Part shown: piece by piece, positions 6,424 through 64,000 of the stretch | How the letters are laid out: each line of letters starts with the position of its first letter | Numbering within the stretch: the stretch's first letter is position 1 | Assembly (NCBI GenBank): GCA_030583745.1 | Contig: CP129473.1 | Location: forward strand, 616,211 to 680,210 | From: Minisyncoccota bacterium | Lineage (GTDB): Bacteria > Patescibacteriota > Minisyncoccia > Phycocordibacterales > BOKC01 | DNA: 64,000 bases | Reading direction: 5' to 3' | Translations under genes and position numbers: made by a program | The notes under the pieces: model-generated | Told to the model about the DNA's origin: nothing | The model's input: the letters and a program-made list of their open reading frames with translations, nothing else | The model's database searches: none

Positions 6424-6831
6424 ATGGAAAATAAAATTCTAAAAATTATCCTAGGACTCATTGTCGCTATTGCTATTTTACACACGGTAGCCATCTATTT
6501 CTATTTGTATTACGAACTTTGGTGGTTTGATATTTTGATGCACTTTGTTGGCGGTTTTTGGACAGTCTTGTTTTTTCTCTGGCTTTTGGTTTTTTCTGGA
6601 GCGTTTTTGCTTGATGTTGAACGTAAAAATCCGGCGATTCTGTCTTTCTTGGCAACGTCTTTTCTTGTGATCGTTGCTGTTTTTTGGGAAATTTTTGAAC
6701 TAAAATTTGGTCTGACTTCTCTTAACGACTTTGATTATATTCAAGACACAGTTTCTGATATCTTTTCGGCTTTTGCCGGCGGACTTTTGGCTTCTCTATT
6801 TTTCTTCCGGAAAGTTTTTAAAAACTTCTAA
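6424..6831 (+). CDS. Hypothetical small membrane protein (4 TM)
   Basis: Hydrophobic 135-aa ORF. Confidence 0.6.
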   Translation: MENKILKIILGLIVAIAILHTVAIYFYLYYELWWFDILMHFVGGFWTVLFFLWLLVFSGAFLLDVERKNPAILSFLATSFLVIVAVFWEIFELKFGLTSLNDFDYIQDTVSDIFSAFAGGLLASLFFFRKVFKNF

Positions 6832-6877
6832 AAGAAAAAGGCGCCCCATACAGATAGCGCCCACGAAACCGTCTTCA

Positions 6878-7045
6878 TCAGCTGCTGACTCTTTCCGCCT
6901 TACTCAGGTAGAGTTTCCGGCAGAGTTGACTCGGCTGGGGTTTGGTTTCCCCCCTTTCTTCTTTTTCTCCTTCTTTCCGGCACACTTCCTGTTCCTCTGC
7001 CGGATGCGTTGTTGATTGAGGTTTTTCCACACGCTCTTTTTCCAT
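6878..7045 (-). CDS. Hypothetical small charged protein (55 aa, 2 Cys)
   Basis: Good SD AAGGAGA 7 nt before the ATG; a terminator hairpin plus T-run lies downstream on the minus strand at about 6840-6868. Confidence 0.4.
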   Translation of the reverse strand: MEKERVEKPQSTTHPAEEQEVCRKEGEKEERGETKPQPSQLCRKLYLSKAERVSS

Positions 7046-27262: not shown

Positions 27263-27289
27263 AAATTATTGTAATATACTTTCAGATTT

Positions 27290-27363
27290 GCGCCTATAGC
27301 TCAATTGGTAGAGCGTCCGTCTTATACACGGAAGGTTTCTTGGTTCGAGTCCAAGTGGGCGCA
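27290..27363 (+). tRNA. tRNA with anticodon UAU, formally tRNA-Ile reading AUA
   Basis: Cloverleaf: acceptor gcgccta/tgggcgc; D-arm gctc-aattggta-gagc; anticodon stem tccgt/acgga with loop cTTATAc; T-arm cttgg-ttcgagt-ccaag; 6-nt variable region. Confidence 0.75.
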
Positions 27364-27423
27364 TTATCAGCTTTTATTATCCGCGTATATCAGCGGGTAT
27401 TTTACATCTGCGTTAATCCGCGT

Positions 27424-51174: not shown

Positions 51175-51250
51175 TGGAGCCGACCCGGGGACTTGAACCC
51201 CGCACCTACGGTTTACGATACCGTTGCTCTACCAGATGAGCTAGGTCGGC
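51175..51250 (-). tRNA. tRNA-Thr(CGU) with an encoded CCA
   Basis: Acceptor gccgacc/ggtcggc; D-arm gctc-atctggta-gagc; anticodon stem acggt/accgt with loop aTCGTAa; T-arm cgggg-ttcaagt-ccccg; discriminator U plus CCA. Confidence 0.9.
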
Positions 51251-57268: not shown

Positions 57269-58179
57269 ACATCTGCTACAAACTTCTTACGGAATCTATT
57301 TCTTAGCTTTATTAGCGATGGAAACAAAAATTCAGGACGCACAATGGCACGTTTTACATACATCCAGAGACTTTCCATGCGGCCAAAATGCCTTATTAAA
57401 ACTTTATGTTCTTCAGTTTTTCTAGTTCCTTGTTCTCTAATTTCCGCTAAAGAATTTTGGTGTATTCGATATCCAGCAGTGACTTCTGGTATATAGCCTA
57501 TCTTTGTGTTAACAATTTTTGCATATTCAAACGAAGAAAGCGCGATGTCCACATCCTCAGCGCACCCAATATTAGGATCAAATGGTCCATCAAAACCATA
57601 ACGTCTTTTAACCCACAAGGTTAATCCTTCCAAAAAGTCTTTCCTCCAACACATGGTCGGATATGGCATCTTGCCAAAAATCCAAAAATTCTTGTATGCC
57701 CTTTGAGGGTTAAGAGCTTTCCAAACAAGGCGACCAGGGATATCATTATCGAAAAAAATAAAAGCATCAGAATAGCCAAAAGAAAATTGATTTTTCTCCA
57801 TAAAAGATAATCTCAAACCGAGATTGGTAACGAGATCATCAGAATCAGTGAATGAAATATATTTATGGTTGGAAATATCAATACCTGCTATATTTTTATG
57901 CTTGAGGCATAACTCTATTGCATAGTTTCTTGCATTTGTCGAACTTAGTGGTTCTGCATGAGACTTTTCTCTTCTGATCACTCTTCGCGTTGGATGGTCG
58001 GCATATTTTTTGCTTAATACCGAGTACATATCATCAGTGCTTCCATCGTCGACGATTAAATGGAAAAGATTGTCGAGATTTTGCGAATCAACTGATTGTA
58101 TTGTTTGTTCAAGATATTGGCGTCTATTTAGAAACCTCTGATCTCCAGACCGAGAATAATATGTGGTAATTAGAATCAT
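57265..58179 (-). CDS. Glycosyltransferase family 2
   Basis: ILITTYYS...HLIVDDGSTDD. Confidence 0.85.
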   Translation of the reverse strand: MILITTYYSRSGDQRFLNRRQYLEQTIQSVDSQNLDNLFHLIVDDGSTDDMYSVLSKKYADHPTRRVIRREKSHAEPLSSTNARNYAIELCLKHKNIAGIDISNHKYISFTDSDDLVTNLGLRLSFMEKNQFSFGYSDAFIFFDNDIPGRLVWKALNPQRAYKNFWIFGKMPYPTMCWRKDFLEGLTLWVKRRYGFDGPFDPNIGCAEDVDIALSSFEYAKIVNTKIGYIPEVTAGYRIHQNSLAEIREQGTRKTEEHKVLIRHFGRMESLWMYVKRAIVRPEFLFPSLIKLRNRFRKKFVADV

Positions 58180-60449
58180 AAAGAATTGATAATTTTCTCA
58201 AGCAACTTTTCTAGATATTCAAGGTGCCCAGAAAAATCAGAGTCAGATGTGTGAGGATTTCCTATTGTAACCCCCAGAACACGCAATTTTTGCTTACTAG
58301 GAATAATTTTCTCCGTGACATCGATAATGTCAAAAGTGTGTATGCACATGTAGCCCTCCGTATACGTCAGATTGTGAAGTGATTGGTTGATTTGGTTTAT
58401 TAATGAAGAGTCGAAAGTGATGTCTGGATAGTGTGATTGAAGTTTTTCTGGTGAAATAGAGAAAACTACACTATTTAGCTCAACATTATTAAGAGCGATG
58501 AAGTACTTCGATTCATTCATTGTTATAGACCACTTTTTTGCTAGGCTGAAGCGGTAATCCACCAACTCTCCCACACCATCAACACCAAGATGCTTCATGA
58601 AGAACCATAATTTTAAACTATCGAATGGTCTGCTCCCTAAAAATGGTGTTATCTGCCCCAAATCAAATGAACCCTTTTGAATAGTAATATCTGTGGATTT
58701 ACTAATCAGCTGAAGGTCGGCTAGATCTCTAAAGAGTATTGCGCTTGAGGAATATGGTATACCCAACCCCTTGTGTGGATCGATACTGATTGAATCAGCC
58801 ATTTCAATTCCTTGCATTTTCGCCTTTAAATTTTTTGAAAACAAGGCCACACCGCCATGACACGCATCGACATGTAGCCATACACTATGTTTTCTTGTAA
58901 TCAGTGCTATTTTCTCAAAATTTTCGATGGTAGTTGTTCTCGAATCACCAGCTTGTGCTACCACCGCAACTACTTTTGATGTTTTACTATTGTTGTATGT
59001 AACGAGCTTTGTTTCCAAATCATCATAATCAAGACGGTAATCATTAAGCATATTTATCTTCACAATATTCTCTTCCCCCAAACCGAGCCACCAGAATGCG
59101 GCTATATGAGAATAATGATAAATGGTATCGCCGGTAATGAGTAAGATCGGCTTTATATTTGATTCTGTTAAACCTTGCTTTCGTGATTCTGGAAAAACCT
59201 TACAACGAGCAACTAAAAGTCCGATGGTATTTGCAAGAGTACCACCAGTAACCATCACTCCTCCCACATCCAAAGCATTTCCAGGGATTTCTTTTGGATT
59301 CGCAAAACCAATAAGCTGGCGAAGCCAGTGAATAACCTGCACTTCGACAAAAGTCCCGGTTGGTGCGCTCTTAGCAGTTGCTATAAGATTCTGATTTGTA
59401 AAACACTCTAAAATACTTGCCGCCAATGCGGATGTGGCATTTCCAGAATCAGGAAAAGCTAAATAATTTGGAGATGATTGTCTTATTGAACCATCAAGTA
59501 TTTTTGTTTGATATTCTGATATAACTTGCTCCAAAGCCTGACCTTTCTCAGGGATATTCTCTAACAGATTTGCTTGAACTTTTTGTTCCGGATAAAAATT
59601 TAAAACTTTATGGTGATTATTGGTAATAAAATCAACACCGATATCTAAGCACTTTCTAAAAACCTTTTCCCCATATTCCTTGCCAATATCGCCAAGAAAC
59701 TTACTCTTTAAATCAAACTCAGATTTATCTGTTAATCTATTTAATGAGTTGATAGCATTGGATCTTCGCACGGTATATTTGTTTTCTGAAATAAGCACTA
59801 AGCCCTGCTGTTCGAGTTTCGATAGTATCAGCGGTAGATGCCTATCCAGATATTGTCTCGTGTAATTTGTATTGCAGAAACCCAAATATTCTTTGCCCTC
59901 ATCTAATAATCGGGTTATTATTTCTTGCTGATCAAAAGTATCTTTGCTACCGGATAACAACAGTAACAGTATGATAGATTGAAGACATCTGGTTTTTAAT
60001 TCCTCAAAACTTGCCGGGTCGCCTATAATCAACTGACTGGGACCAGCGCAAGCACTCAACCATTGTCTATACTCGTTGAATGTTGTCCACTCATTCGCGG
60101 CAAGAGGTAAAATCTCTACATGTTTTTGATCGTAAGTAAATCCGTATCCAGCTATTGCTTTTTCCAACTCAGAACGAGTAATAAACTCACCCGGGTAATG
60201 TTCATCAGGAATAAGTGCATAATCAACGTGAAACTGGATAAAGAATTCCTTAAACTCGTCAACCTTAGATTGAATTAAACTTCCGTCTTTGAAGATAAGT
60301 AATAAATCAATATCACTCGCTGGTTTGTTCTCAAGGCGAGCTCGGGAACCAAAAATAACTGCATATTCAACCTCAGTCGGAAACTGTTCCATTATCTTAT
60401 TCGAAAGAGTATGGATTAATTCGTCTTGATTTTCTATGTTGAACATCAT
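58176..60449 (-). CDS. Fusion protein: N-terminal Pol-beta-type nucleotidyltransferase domain plus C-terminal PLP-dependent group II decarboxylase-like domain
   Basis: NTase motif VIFGSRARLENKPASDIDLLLIF. The PLP-binding Lys sits in SISIDPHKGLGIPYSSSAILF, in a fold-type I decarboxylase (DDC/GAD-like) region. Confidence 0.75.
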   Translation of the reverse strand: MMFNIENQDELIHTLSNKIMEQFPTEVEYAVIFGSRARLENKPASDIDLLLIFKDGSLIQSKVDEFKEFFIQFHVDYALIPDEHYPGEFITRSELEKAIAGYGFTYDQKHVEILPLAANEWTTFNEYRQWLSACAGPSQLIIGDPASFEELKTRCLQSIILLLLLSGSKDTFDQQEIITRLLDEGKEYLGFCNTNYTRQYLDRHLPLILSKLEQQGLVLISENKYTVRRSNAINSLNRLTDKSEFDLKSKFLGDIGKEYGEKVFRKCLDIGVDFITNNHHKVLNFYPEQKVQANLLENIPEKGQALEQVISEYQTKILDGSIRQSSPNYLAFPDSGNATSALAASILECFTNQNLIATAKSAPTGTFVEVQVIHWLRQLIGFANPKEIPGNALDVGGVMVTGGTLANTIGLLVARCKVFPESRKQGLTESNIKPILLITGDTIYHYSHIAAFWWLGLGEENIVKINMLNDYRLDYDDLETKLVTYNNSKTSKVVAVVAQAGDSRTTTIENFEKIALITRKHSVWLHVDACHGGVALFSKNLKAKMQGIEMADSISIDPHKGLGIPYSSSAILFRDLADLQLISKSTDITIQKGSFDLGQITPFLGSRPFDSLKLWFFMKHLGVDGVGELVDYRFSLAKKWSITMNESKYFIALNNVELNSVVFSISPEKLQSHYPDITFDSSLINQINQSLHNLTYTEGYMCIHTFDIIDVTEKIIPSKQKLRVLGVTIGNPHTSDSDFSGHLEYLEKLLEKIINSL

Positions 60450-61303: not shown

Positions 61304-61552
61304 TTAGGCCCGACCGAGCCCCGTTTTCCGCCCATTCAATTTTTGAAAAATCCCCCCGCGAAAAAAGAAAAGTATGAGAGCGGAAACGGGGCGAGGGCGG
61401 AGCGCCGGAGCGGATGCGGAGGCGCTGGGCGGCGTTTGAGAGTCATCACGAACTCCAATGCGTACGATTTGGTATCGCATCGCCACGCGCGCGGCGCGTG
61501 GCAGGTCATTCGGTATTTTTGCTAAAATAGGTTCGAGCGGAGTACAATAGGG
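61304..61552. repeat. IR1-R: inverted copy of the 247-bp repeat
   Basis: See IR1-L; identity ends at the same 'ctcggtcgg' boundary. Confidence 0.9.
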
Positions 61553-61554
61553 AC

Positions 61555-61655
61555 TCAAGAATCAAACTCAACTGCTTTTTAGGGGCAGAAGTTTTGGCGG
61601 CGCGAAGCGCCGCATAAGGGGGGATGGGATTTCCGCGCGCTTCGCGCGCGTGAAG
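61555..61655. repeat. IR2-a: a ~100-bp GC-rich repeat, inverted relative to 63307-63410
   Basis: Identical 33-aa translation HAREARGNPIPPYAALRAAKTSAPKKQLSLILE on opposite strands. It contains the palindromic core 'cgcgcgcgaagcgcgcg'. Confidence 0.9.
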
Positions 61656-61920
61656 GAGGTTCAGAAAATTCTGATCCGAAAATTTTGGAGGGAGGATCAA
61701 AAGGCAGCTCTGCAAGTTTATGTGTGTTTACCCCACCCGCCCGTGCGCACACACCAATCATCGCCGTTTTTGCGGAGACATTATAAAACGGCGATGATTG
61801 CTCCCATGGAAAGTGCTATACTTTAAGTGCAATCAATCCGACAGGTCGTCTTTCCTAATGGCCGTCCCAGACAGTTCAAGGCGACTTGGATTGATTGCAC
61901 CGGGGCGGCCATTTAAGTTT

Positions 61921-63468
61921 ATGAAATATTTTCTATACGCTAGAAAATCTACTGATGTCGAGGACAAGCAAGTGCTTTCTATTGAAGCACAGCTTTCAGA
62001 GTTGAGAATTATTGCCAGAAATCAGGAGTTGGAAATTTTAGAAGAGTTTATTGAAAAACGAAGTGCAAAATCTCCAGGCCGCCCCACGTTCGGCGACATG
62101 ATGGCGCGGATTCAAAAGGGCGAAGCGAATGGCATTATTTGTTGGAAGGTAGACCGCCTCGCGAGAAATCCCGTGGATGGCGGACAAGTGCAGTGGCTTT
62201 TGCAGCAAGGTGTCATTCGCCACATTCAAACACACGACCGCTCGCACTATCCGAACGACAATGTGTTGATGATGTCCGTCGAGCTCGGGATGGCGAACGA
62301 GTACATACGCCAACTCTCCGCAAACACAGCACGGGGATTGCGGCAAAAAGCGAGGCAAGGAATTTATCCCGGACTCGCCCCTATCGGTTACATAAATGAT
62401 CCGCGCACCAAAACCATCCGCGTTCACAAGAAAAATGCCGCGCTGGTGCGCGAAATGTTTGAAAAGTACGCAAGCGGAAGCGCAACGCTCGACGGCCTCG
62501 CGACTTTTCTTGAAAACGCAGGCGTAATATCAAAAGGAAATCGTCGCGTCCATATCTCGCGCATCTCGTTCATTTTGCAAAATCCATTTTATTACGGACA
62601 CTTCCGCTACGCGGGCGAAGTGTACGAGGGAAATCACATGTCTCTCATTTCAAAAGCACTGTACGACAAGGCGAACGCAGTGCTTCGCGGACGTGGCCGG
62701 ACACTCGCCGTCAAAACCGATCCTGCGCCATACTGCGGACTCCTGCGTTGCGGCTTCTGCGGCATGGCAATCACGGCCGAGATGAAAGAGAAGCATCAGA
62801 AGAACGGGAATGTTCATCGCTACACATATTACCGATGTACACGCAAGAACAAGGCCGTGAGATGCAAAGAAGCGCCGATGCGAAGCGAGCTTTTGGACTC
62901 GCAACTTTCGGCGCTTCTTTCCGAATACACCATGTCGCAGGAGTGGGTATCTCCACTTTCGGAGATGCTGAATACAGAAGCCGCTAACGCTTCCAAAACG
63001 GCGGCGGAGGCCGTTCAAGAACTGCGAGACAAGTGCGAAAACATTTCTCGGCAAATAACGCGCTTGACGGACTTGTATGTTGCCGAGGACATCGAGCGCG
63101 AAGATTACTTGTCTCGCAGGCGTTCTCTTATGTCGGAACGCCGGACGATAGAAGAAAATATCGTCCGTCTTGAACGAGCCCCCGCTTTATGGGTTGAACC
63201 TGTCCGAAATTGGATAACGGACGCTTCAACACTGGACAAAATCGCGCAAGCGGAAGACCTCCTTTTGAAAAAATCATCCCTCCAAAAAATTTTCGGATTG
63301 AACCTCTCAATTCACGCGCGCGAAGCGCGCGGAAATCCCATCCCCCCTTATGCGGCGCTTCGCGCCGCCAAAACTTCTGCCCCTAAAAAGCAGTTGAGTT
63401 TGATTCTTGAGCCAACGGTCGGAATTGAACCGACGACCTCGCCCTTCGCTTTTACCCCTGTTTCCTAG
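61921..63468 (+). CDS. Large serine recombinase (resolvase/invertase catalytic domain, recombinase domain, zinc ribbon and coiled-coil)
   Basis: YARKSTDVEDKQVLSIEAQ holds the catalytic Ser; zinc ribbon CGLLRCGFCG...YYRC. The gene is GC-rich, about 55%. The ORF's last ~55 codons run through IR2-b and the antisense tRNA 3' exon, so the real stop is uncertain. Confidence 0.85.
   Translation: MKYFLYARKSTDVEDKQVLSIEAQLSELRIIARNQELEILEEFIEKRSAKSPGRPTFGDMMARIQKGEANGIICWKVDRLARNPVDGGQVQWLLQQGVIRHIQTHDRSHYPNDNVLMMSVELGMANEYIRQLSANTARGLRQKARQGIYPGLAPIGYINDPRTKTIRVHKKNAALVREMFEKYASGSATLDGLATFLENAGVISKGNRRVHISRISFILQNPFYYGHFRYAGEVYEGNHMSLISKALYDKANAVLRGRGRTLAVKTDPAPYCGLLRCGFCGMAITAEMKEKHQKNGNVHRYTYYRCTRKNKAVRCKEAPMRSELLDSQLSALLSEYTMSQEWVSPLSEMLNTEAANASKTAAEAVQELRDKCENISRQITRLTDLYVAEDIEREDYLSRRRSLMSERRTIEENIVRLERAPALWVEPVRNWITDASTLDKIAQAEDLLLKKSSLQKIFGLNLSIHAREARGNPIPPYAALRAAKTSAPKKQLSLILEPTVGIEPTTSPFAFTPVS
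63307..63410. repeat. IR2-b: copy of the 100-bp repeat that ends exactly at the tRNA-Thr(GGU) 3' end
   Basis: Identity with 61555-61655 (inverted) stops at 63410, which is the discriminator position of the minus-strand tRNA. Confidence 0.9.
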
Positions 63469-63691
63469 AAGCTTATCAGGGGGCTAGACTGTATCTTAGA
63501 CTTATTCGTAATTGTGAACTTAGTCTCCCTTGTCAGTCGTTCGGGCCTCCCAATTAAATTAACTGAGATGCCACGGTCTTAACCAAGCTCTGGTCTTTAA
63601 CCGTTATTCAGGATTCTCTAAAAGATTTCTCTTTTAGAGGGCAGAAATGCTTTCTACCATGGGCGTGCTCTACCAACTGAGCTACGTTGGC
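63410..63691 (-). tRNA. Intron-containing tRNA, most consistent with tRNA-Thr(GGU)
   Basis: The 5' exon reads gccaacg-ta-gctc-agttggta-gagc-a-cgccc-auggu. The 3' exon reads aa-gggcg-aggtc-gtcgg-ttcaatt-ccgac-cgttggc-u. The acceptor and anticodon stems are perfectly complementary across a 209-nt insertion in the anticodon loop. Confidence 0.75.
63447..63655 (-). ncRNA. Candidate group I intron (~209 nt) in the tRNA anticodon loop between positions 36 and 37
   Basis: The 5' splice site follows a U that forms a U-G pair within a P1 hairpin (GGU|AGAAA gca UUUCUGCC). P2 is a 9-bp hairpin (CUCUAAAAG...CUUUUAGAG). A P7-like pair AGACUA / AGUCUAG is present. The intron ends in G (..AAAAGCG|AA). An A-rich bulged P4-P6-like hairpin is also present. 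Confidence 0.55.
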
Positions 63692-63789
63692 GCATTAAAT
63701 TAATGCGTGGCTAAATCCTATTATATAAAATCACTTTTTTCAACACTTTTTCATGTTAAAATCAAAACTACGATCAGGAAATTGAGGCG

Positions 63790-63995
63790 CTCCTGCTTAT
63801 GCTCCCATGCCTCCCGCCAAAGAAGGCTTCGGCCTGAAAGATGGAAACAGGGTAAAGCGGATTAGATACCCGCTGTGGGTGGGTTGAATTCCCACCGTTA
63901 ACACTTTGTACCCCTGTATCTCCCGCCCGAAAGGGAAACCGGCGGCCCCGTTTAGCGGGGAGCCCTCACGCACGAAAAAGTGCGAGAGGGTTTTT
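63790..63995 (+). ncRNA. Candidate GC-rich structured RNA ending in a strong terminator
   Basis: Nested helices (acagggta...tacccctgt; gcgg-attagatac-ccgc; ggtggg-ttgaatt-cccacc) and a terminator 'ccctcacgcac gaaaaa gtgcgagaggg' plus TTTTTT. It contains only a 12-codon ORF. Confidence 0.35.
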
Positions 63996-64000
63996 TATTT

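Follow-up and report, generated by a model that had tools for sequence, protein, structure and literature searches.

A tRNA-Thr(GGU) gene split by a compact group I intron, beside a serine recombinase cassette with long inverted repeats

What occupies the 209 nucleotides (nt) that separate the two halves of a tRNA-Thr(GGU) gene in a genome of the Patescibacteria, and what is the recombinase gene that adjoins the tRNA? We examined this question in a 64,000-nt stretch of DNA from a Minisyncoccota bacterium (contig CP129473.1, positions 616,211 to 680,210; hereafter the window), where an earlier reading of the sequence alone had proposed a group I intron in the anticodon loop of the tRNA. Our own reading, to which we assign a probability of roughly 93%, is that the locus is a minus-strand tRNA-Thr(GGU) gene with a 281-nt precursor, interrupted between U36 and A37 by a compact 209-nt group I intron that lacks an open reading frame (ORF), belongs to a conserved Thr(GGU) lineage common in Patescibacteria and is presumably self-splicing, and that the recombinase cassette occupies the same locus independently of the intron.

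The split tRNA gene and the fold of its insert

On the minus strand, the 36-nt 5' exon reads GCCAACG-UA-GCUC-AGUUGGUA-GAGC-A-CGCCC-AU-GGU and the 36-nt 3' exon reads AA-GGGCG-AGGUC-GUCGG-UUCAAUU-CCGAC-CGUUGGC (Table 1). Joined in silico, the exons give a 72-nt tRNA with a perfect cloverleaf, identified as tRNA-Thr(GGU) by ARAGORN, which with its intron search reports tRNA-Thr(ggt) i(37,209) on the genomic sequence, so that the two halves first picked out 209 nt apart are indeed those of one tRNA-Thr(GGU) gene. The discriminator U lies at 63410, and CCA is not encoded in the gene. The G1-C72 and C2-G71 pairs and the anticodon bases G35-U36 agree with what we take to be the bacterial threonine identity elements. 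An exon-only pattern matched once in the 64-kb window and in none of 100 shuffles; the only other Thr gene inside the window is a Thr(CGU) gene (51175-51250). Default ARAGORN, run without the intron search, missed the split gene. The ends of the insert read AGAAAGC...AAAAGCG, and with 209 nt and no ORF it encodes no homing endonuclease.

The unconstrained minimum free energy (MFE) fold of the 281-nt precursor was compared with the folds of 200 shuffled sequences. The precursor folds at -100.6 kcal/mol against -71.3 ± 5.2 for the shuffles (z = -5.65; 0/200 shuffles as good), and the MFE structure recovers the four tRNA stems together with P1, P2, P4/P5, P6, P7, P8 and P9. A permissive local Rfam search of positions 63300-64000 (701 nt) aligned the insert to Intron_gpI (RF00028) over the full length of the model (model positions 1-253) at 20.6 bits (E = 0.007 for this search). 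J8/7 and P7 are rightly placed in this alignment, the combined segment reading UAAGAUACAGUC in the window and AAGAUAUAGUC in the Rfam consensus. The Rfam check put forward with the sequence-only reading thus has two sides: the alignment spans the whole model, and the match is sub-threshold; at the gathering threshold, Rfam returned no intron match in the window. The P3/P7 pseudoknot, on whose formation that reading had made its case depend, can form, and P3 covaries. The strand pair offered there as P7 (AGACUA/AGUCUAG) has to be given up: its two halves come from different helices (P8, 5' strand, and P7, 3' strand), and the pairing holds in only 57.6% of cases over the 33 aligned homologues described below, with zero compensatory change.

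A homologous family with a covarying structure

Homologues were collected by scanning the genomes of 185,579 species, one for each, with an exon-only pattern (GAGCNNNCCCNTGGT, 177-237 nt, GAAGGG-N10-GGTTC). The scan returned 47 loci, 42 of which are intron-split tRNAs, and 32 genome loci share with the window the core GAAUNACGGUUAA..AGACCGU..CGAACGACUGACA..AUACAGUCUA at 53-71% identity overall. These 32 are labelled mostly Saccharibacteria, Paceibacterota, Minisyncoccia, Nomurabacteria, Kazan and Patescibacteria.

We tested the window-derived structure on the alignment of 33 sequences (the window and its 32 homologues) against 500 shuffles. Paired cells amounted to 90.3%, compared with 72.7% in column shuffles and 33-44% when the partners were slid by 1-3 columns; compensatory changes occurred in 39/55 pairs, and 0/500 shuffles attained the observed values. 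The helices that covary are P1 (intron part), P2, P3, P5, P6, P8, P9.0 and P9, which are all those that vary; P9.0, for instance, occurs in the compensatory states GC/GC, GU/AC and AU/AU. The P1 U-G wobble and the terminal G proposed from the sequence alone were borne out by the U•G in 33/33 homologues and by a final G in 143/143 introns collected, and the P2 helix proposed with them by compensatory change in 9/10 pairs. A profile hidden Markov model built from the other 32 introns, with the window left out, matched the window at 63648-63447 (E = 3.1e-41), the sole significant match in the 64 kb.

The same results bear on whether the insert could be an element of another kind, such as a group II intron, an archaeal-type bulge-helix-bulge intron or a small insertion sequence. 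This idea was considered only for lack of an above-threshold Rfam call, and no positive support for it was found. Against it stand the length of 209 nt and lack of an ORF, a sole RNA-family match that is to Intron_gpI at full model length, covarying helices that are those of a group I intron, P9.0 and the P3/P7 pseudoknot included, and splice sites with neither terminal repeats nor a target duplication. The Intron_gpI match and the covarying group I helices rule such elements out in our view, and we allow them next to no probability. The insert is best read as a group I intron.

The breadth of the family was gauged with a scan of JGI metagenome contigs that used intron core bases only (CGAACGACTGACA-N18-48-ATACAGTCTA) and gave at least 120 loci. 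Among the 120 listed, the flanks were those of tRNA-Thr(GGU) at 36/37 in 110 by a strict test (anticodon-stem complementarity in the flanks) and in a further 6 by eye; 2 were cut by a contig end and 2 (L066 and L135) had non-tRNA flanks. The 5' exon ends in (A/U)UGGU in the 110 strict-test copies. All scans together found more than 150 Thr(GGU)-type copies, nearly all in tRNA-Thr(GGU). None of 9 further family copies examined with Rfam reaches the gathering score, and ARAGORN miscalls many family members as Arg(GCG) 34/35. Intronless tRNA-Thr(GGU) genes also occur in related contexts (for example at L055), which makes the presence of the intron sporadic.

Some members of the family lie in other settings. 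The lineage extends beyond Patescibacteria to a cultured Bacteroidota isolate, Niastella populi (L002:5234-5414, minus strand, NZ_LWBP01000002.1), where it sits in tRNA-Thr(GGU), and metagenome-assembled genomes (MAGs) labelled Phycisphaerae and Bacteroidetes (L019 and L043) have it in this tRNA gene too. The two loci with non-tRNA flanks (L066:~6750-6990 and L135:~1130-1330, both plus strand) have the core CGAACGACUGACA...AUACAGUCUA and a P1 in which GCC again pairs with an exon ending ...GGU. At L066, the 5' splice site is reached by one ORF (...EMKRQMDGG), and a second continues downstream; this may be a Thr-type intron within a protein-coding gene. A Saccharibacteria Thr-intron locus (L009:3065-3334, minus strand) has a second group I intron nearby, which at 63.1 bits is above the Rfam gathering score.

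Several points weigh against our reading of the tRNA locus. The Intron_gpI score lies far under the gathering threshold of 50 bits, a shortfall usual for this lineage, to which the model is known to respond poorly. P4 and P7 are invariant across the 33 sequences, so that covariation neither supports nor contradicts them. No convincing P10 pairing was found on inspection by eye, and the view is of the window alone, from whose 64 kb the sole-copy status of tRNA-Thr(GGU) in the genome is not visible. The introns whose splicing was validated by Nakagawa et al. (2026, mSystems, PMC13011429) sit in Asn and Asp tRNAs at 35/36, none of them in a Thr tRNA.

One could suppose that the insert is an intron by descent that no longer acts, that the tRNA is dead, and that a tRNA-Thr gene in some other part of the genome decodes ACC and ACU. 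The low Rfam score is compatible with this, as are the second tRNA-Thr of the window (CGU), the limitation of the view to the window and the fact that splicing of the Thr lineage is predicted from sequence. However, none of the bases that are constant across the 33 aligned sequences has changed in the window, among them those of the U•G, of both strands of P4 and P7, of J8/7 and of the terminal G, and there is no disabling core mutation; all helices are intact and the exons are perfect. Moreover, supplement counts for the published Paceibacteria genome GCA_030583745.1, with the column order as we read it, give 3 Thr genes with intron-aware tools vs 2 without, which suggests that the split gene is the sole GGU copy there. 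We consider a dead intron decidedly unlikely.

With the gene split at U36/A37, splice sites that carry group I signatures, a full helix set with the P3/P7 pseudoknot, covariation and a homologous family, the group I intron first proposed for the anticodon loop of tRNA-Thr(GGU) stands. From established group I chemistry, we infer that it undergoes catalytic, guanosine-dependent self-splicing. The internal guide GCC would pair with the exon GGU and so place U36 in the P1 U•G wobble, and free guanosine, bound in P7, would attack after U36. The terminal G (63447) would then dock in the same pocket via P9.0 and P7, and the freed 3'-OH of U36 would attack after it, joining the exons into the 72-nt tRNA and releasing the intron. 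The anticodon stem CGCCC/GGGCG would keep the exons together, and CCA would be added after splicing.

Table 1. Features of the tRNA-Thr(GGU) locus and the adjoining recombinase cassette (positions in the window).
Feature	Position	Strand	Basis
tRNA-Thr(GGU) 5' exon, tRNA positions 1-36, anticodon GGU at its end	63656..63691	-	ARAGORN with intron search, spliced cloverleaf, sequence
Group I intron, 209 nt, between U36 and A37, without ORF	63447..63655	-	
tRNA-Thr(GGU) 3' exon, tRNA positions 37-72	63411..63446	-	sequence, spliced cloverleaf
P1, exon GGU and intron AGAAA with UUUCU-GCC; splice-site U 63656 wobbles with G 63642	63640..63658	-	U•G and both exon G-C pairs 33/33; intron part covaries
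P2 hairpin, 10 bp, GAAA tetraloop 63629-63626	63616..63639	-	compensatory change in 9/10 pairs; GNRA loop in 112/143 members
P3 5' strand UCCU, pairs with 63529-63526	63610..63613	-	compensatory change in 4/4 pairs
P4 (ACGGU/ACCGU) and P5 hairpin, A-rich J4/5 and J5/4	63573..63604	-	P4 invariant 33/33; P5 covaries in 4/4 pairs
P6/P6a hairpin	63544..63572	-	covariation in 6/7 counted pairs; present in MFE fold
P7 5' strand GACUG, inside invariant CGAACGACUGACA block	63534..63538	-	Rfam alignment, MFE fold, invariant 33/33
P3 3' strand GGGA, closes pseudoknot with P7 (around P4-P6)	63526..63529	-	covariation of P3
P8 hairpin, 5' strand AGACU	63499..63525	-	covariation in 4/4 counted pairs
J8/7 (UAAGAUA) and P7 3' strand CAGUC (63491-63487)	63487..63498	-	agrees with Rfam consensus AAGAUAUAGUC; family-invariant
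P9.0 (GC 63484-63483 with GC 63449-63448), P9 (63482-63477 with 63460-63455), omega G 63447	63447..63484	-	P9.0 2/2 and P9 5/6 pairs covary
Promoter-like site TTGAAA-17-TAGGAT, 24 nt upstream of tRNA 5' end	63715..63743	-	consensus scan only; weak
Large serine recombinase gene, 515 aa (longer ORF start 61798)	61921..63468	+	Pfam; 100% identical to WKZ26465.1
Right arm of 101-nt perfect inverted repeat, equal to recombinase gene 3' end; stops at last acceptor-stem base of tRNA	63311..63411	.	
Left arm of inverted repeat; on minus strand continues into alternative tail SLLYSARTYFSKNTE and a stop (61553-61506)	61554..61654	.	
GC-rich island with recombinase cassette, abutting tRNA 3' end	61305..63411	.	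51% GC

The recombinase cassette at the tRNA 3' end

The less ordinary part of the locus is the serine recombinase cassette with long inverted repeats that is associated with the tRNA-Thr gene. The recombinase has the Resolvase (PF00239), Recombinase (PF07508) and Zn_ribbon_recom (PF13408) domains, all over the Pfam cut-offs. Its last 20 codons (PTVGIEPTTSPFAFTPVS and a stop) run antisense through the tRNA 3' exon and on into the end of the intron, of which they take in 22 nt. The antisense overlap that had been read from the ORF is thus present as described, and the NCBI annotation (WKZ26465.1) has the same extent; the ORF probably does nothing more than run into the antisense strand of the tRNA up to the first stop, which is located in the intron. 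The inverted repeat extends imperfectly beyond its perfect 101 nt to ~149 nt at 88.6%. The GC content of the island compares with 33-42% in flanking 300-nt segments and 40% in the whole window, and the Logan contigs listed with the neighbouring gene end, in 6/6 cases, at window position 61339, the left edge of the island. The sequence-only reading had made the tRNA the integration boundary of the recombinase element. Composition and the behaviour of the recombinase family support a boundary at this point, and the layout is that of an inverted-repeat cassette, not of a simple attL/attR island.

The order repeat-recombinase-repeat-tRNA-Thr recurs at L054 (52-2399), with 85% protein identity and a 96-nt repeat at 99%, and at L117 (2721-5931), with 63% protein identity and a 169-nt repeat at 90.5%. 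Because the same layout is found at these identities in independent assemblies, the idea that the 101-nt inverted repeat is an assembly artefact was rejected.

Such a neighbour raises the question of whether the tRNA halves are themselves products of site-specific recombination, that is, attL/attR-type partial duplicates with 209 nt of unrelated filler between them. The recombinase gene does adjoin the tRNA 3' end, and the 101-nt perfect repeat stops exactly at the tRNA. But the end of the repeat falls at the tRNA 3' end, away from the anticodon loop; the halves add up to exactly one tRNA, with no overlap; and what separates them is a ribozyme fold that is conserved and covaries. The same split gene is found at more than 150 other loci, in other genomes and contigs, and a recombinase homologue accompanies it in only ~10 of 167 intron-bearing Thr loci fetched, directly abutting the tRNA in ~4. 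The duplication that had been named as a way to refute the intron is not what the locus contains, and we see almost no chance that it explains the halves. Between the window and L054, the introns are ~57% identical (an approximate value, as the L054 extract includes some 5'-exon bases) and the recombinases 85%. Taken together, the small number of intron loci with a recombinase and this mismatch in identity indicate that the intron and the cassette are independent occupants of the same tRNA locus.

The recombinase has 3791 homologues at E ≤ 1e-10, ~516 aa long and mostly from Patescibacteria. In the best 120 of the 3791, the proteins agree through ...LSLILE; beyond that point their tails differ, and are tRNA genes translated from the antisense strand. 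A tail LP...CSTN followed by a stop corresponds to intronless Thr(GGU) (at least 33 of the best 120), LR... fits Thr(CGU) (at least 19) and LQ is Thr(UGU); ...F[AV][YF]T... corresponds to the Thr(GGU) 3' exon and the intron end GGUGUAAGCG (11 of the 120), and the alternative tail SLL..ARTYF appears in at least 6. The tail tracks whatever DNA joins at ...LILE, so the overlap with the tRNA, though real as an ORF, need not be selected as protein. These tails suggest a crossover site inside the last codons of the recombinase gene, with tRNA-Thr as the preferred partner.

A second observation concerns inversion. Next to the 3' end of the recombinase gene, L055 (3523-6096) and L057 (3497-6070), from two JGI samples, have the same 2,574-bp segment in opposite orientations, at 100% identity. 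The segment holds a 665-aa ORF without a Pfam match, and its ends lie within 149-nt inverted repeats. In L055, three segments bounded by repeats follow one another, the last ending at an intronless tRNA-Thr(GGU).

A tentative model, which we hold to be somewhat less probable than its negation, is that the recombinases of this Patescibacteria family cross over within their own last codons, after ...LILE, with the 3' ends of tRNA-Thr genes of all three isoacceptors as partners. The gene, with or without cargo, might then flip between inverted repeats of ~100-170 bp, switching its C-terminus between the tRNA-antisense form and SLL..ARTYF, and larger versions might be shufflon-like invertible chains beside tRNA-Thr. 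The cassette may work as an invertible switch, as a mini-element that ends in long inverted repeats, or in both ways. Should it prove active in inversion or integration, an under-studied phylum would supply a compact, self-contained pair of recombinase and site.

Three features elsewhere in the window are recorded for completeness. Past the tRNA gene, 63776-64000 on the plus strand is a GC-rich non-coding stretch with a strong fold (-89.5 kcal/mol, z = -3.65) that runs to the end of the window and closes with a clean intrinsic-terminator hairpin and U-run (63957-63996). Rfam offers no credible match for it; it may be a small RNA of no known class, or the leader or riboswitch of a gene past the window end. 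At 27289-27364 on the plus strand lies a tRNA-Ile with the anticodon UAU (ARAGORN 'tat'; Rfam tRNA 68.7 bits); bacterial AUA is usually read by a lysidine-modified CAU tRNA, and a UAU tRNA-Ile is uncommon. A 757-aa ORF at 58176-60449 on the minus strand has weak nucleotidyltransferase matches (NTP_transf_2 and Polbeta) and a pyridoxal-dependent decarboxylase domain, taken from the precomputed Pfam list of the identical gene in L048; the combination of the two in one ORF is an unusual fusion.

Comparison with known introns and recombination systems

Introns in tRNA-Thr(GGU) at 36/37 have been found in 3/95 complete Patescibacteria genomes, 2/3 of them Paceibacteria (GCA_001029635.1, GCA_016700375.1 and GCA_030583745.1; Nakagawa et al., 2026, mSystems, PMC13011429, Table 1), as part of a pattern in which ~40% of Patescibacteria genomes retain group I introns despite their reduced size. 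None of these three assemblies was among the matches of our species-genome exon scan. The published Thr introns are missed by RF00028 and recovered by the tFind gpI_bact_tRNA model, and ARAGORN miscalls 2/3 of them as Arg(GCG) 34/35 (PMC13011429, Table 1); that paper traces the name 'divergent group I introns' back to Castelle et al. (2018). Group I introns at 36/37 of Thr(GGU) in Patescibacteria were also reported when the settings of bacterial tRNA introns were widened from 4 to 21 (Williams, 2020, bioRxiv 10.1101/2020.01.27.920355). The window intron shares with the published ones the tRNA, the anticodon, the 36/37 site, the phylum, the RF00028 failure and, on family members, the ARAGORN miscall, as well as the class with 2/3 of them, the window coming from a Candidatus Paceibacterota MAG. 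Compared by their descriptions, no difference was found. A tRNA-Thr group I intron in a genome of this kind had been thought unusual on first reading; given the same tRNA, site and phylum in print (PMC13011429; bioRxiv 10.1101/2020.01.27.920355), it is not. The window intron is a further copy of a known, published and very common lineage, which adds one copy to the published pattern and changes nothing in principle. What matters in practice is that the gene escapes default ARAGORN, Rfam at its gathering score and, by published accounts of this kind of gene, tRNAscan-SE, so that to standard tools the genome would seem to lack tRNA-Thr(GGU) and its completeness would be underestimated.

The species-genome exon scan also returned 10 alphaproteobacterial loci with tRNA-Thr(GGU) 36/37 introns, from SAR116, Rhodobacterales, Inquilinus and Micavibrio (L005, L011, L012, L014, L020, L021, L026, L027, L037 and L038). 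They share the tRNA and the site with the window intron and measure 194-214 nt. They are, however, a separate sequence lineage: J8/7-P7 reads AAGGGAUGGUCC or AAGAGACAGUCC, 4/7 searched pass the Rfam gathering score (52-61 bits) against 0/9 of the window lineage, and the window-lineage profile matches them marginally, over J8/7-P9 only (best E ~1e-4).

The IC3 introns of Azoarcus and Agrobacterium are ~200 nt long and have no ORF, with P1-P9, P9.0 and a GNRA loop on P2. The window intron has in common with them the insertion after the third anticodon base, the length of ~200 nt, the lack of an ORF and the minimal helix set; it differs in its host tRNA and in its diverged core, which RF00028 scores at only 20.6 bits. 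The hallmark of IC3 is a compact P1-P9 with P2, neither P2.1 nor P5abc, and a GNRA loop on P2, and the helix inventory of the window intron fits this layout. Subgroup IA, in the Michel-Westhof classification, is marked by extra P7.1/P7.2 between P7 and P3; the window intron has only ACA(A) between P7 (63534) and P3' (63529). The Azoarcus tRNA-Ile(CAU) and Agrobacterium tRNA-Arg(CCU) introns, at 36/37, are placed in IC3 (Reinhold-Hurek and Shub, 1992, as cited in PMC13011429). In the published intron tree, by contrast, the Patescibacteria Thr introns form a long branch in the IA clade, and zero Patescibacteria tRNA introns are assigned to IC (PMC13011429). The Thr intron lineage may thus be a structural subgroup of its own, with an IC3-like layout and an IA-clade position in that tree.

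For the cassette, a search of the literature found no description of the arrangement of recombinase, tRNA-Thr and inverted repeats. Attachment sites inside the recombinase's own gene occur in myxophage Mx8 (intP/intX) and in the integrase of fusellovirus SSV1, and Hin, Gin and Rci represent the serine invertase and shufflon systems. As in Mx8 and SSV1, the C-terminus of the recombinase here varies according to which DNA adjoins the crossover point; as with Hin, Gin and Rci, inverted repeats bracket segments found in both orientations. The cassette differs from these systems in that its enzyme is a large serine recombinase, neither a tyrosine integrase nor a small invertase, its repeats are 100-170 bp long, its partner site is the 3' end of tRNA-Thr, and its recombination is predicted from sequence.

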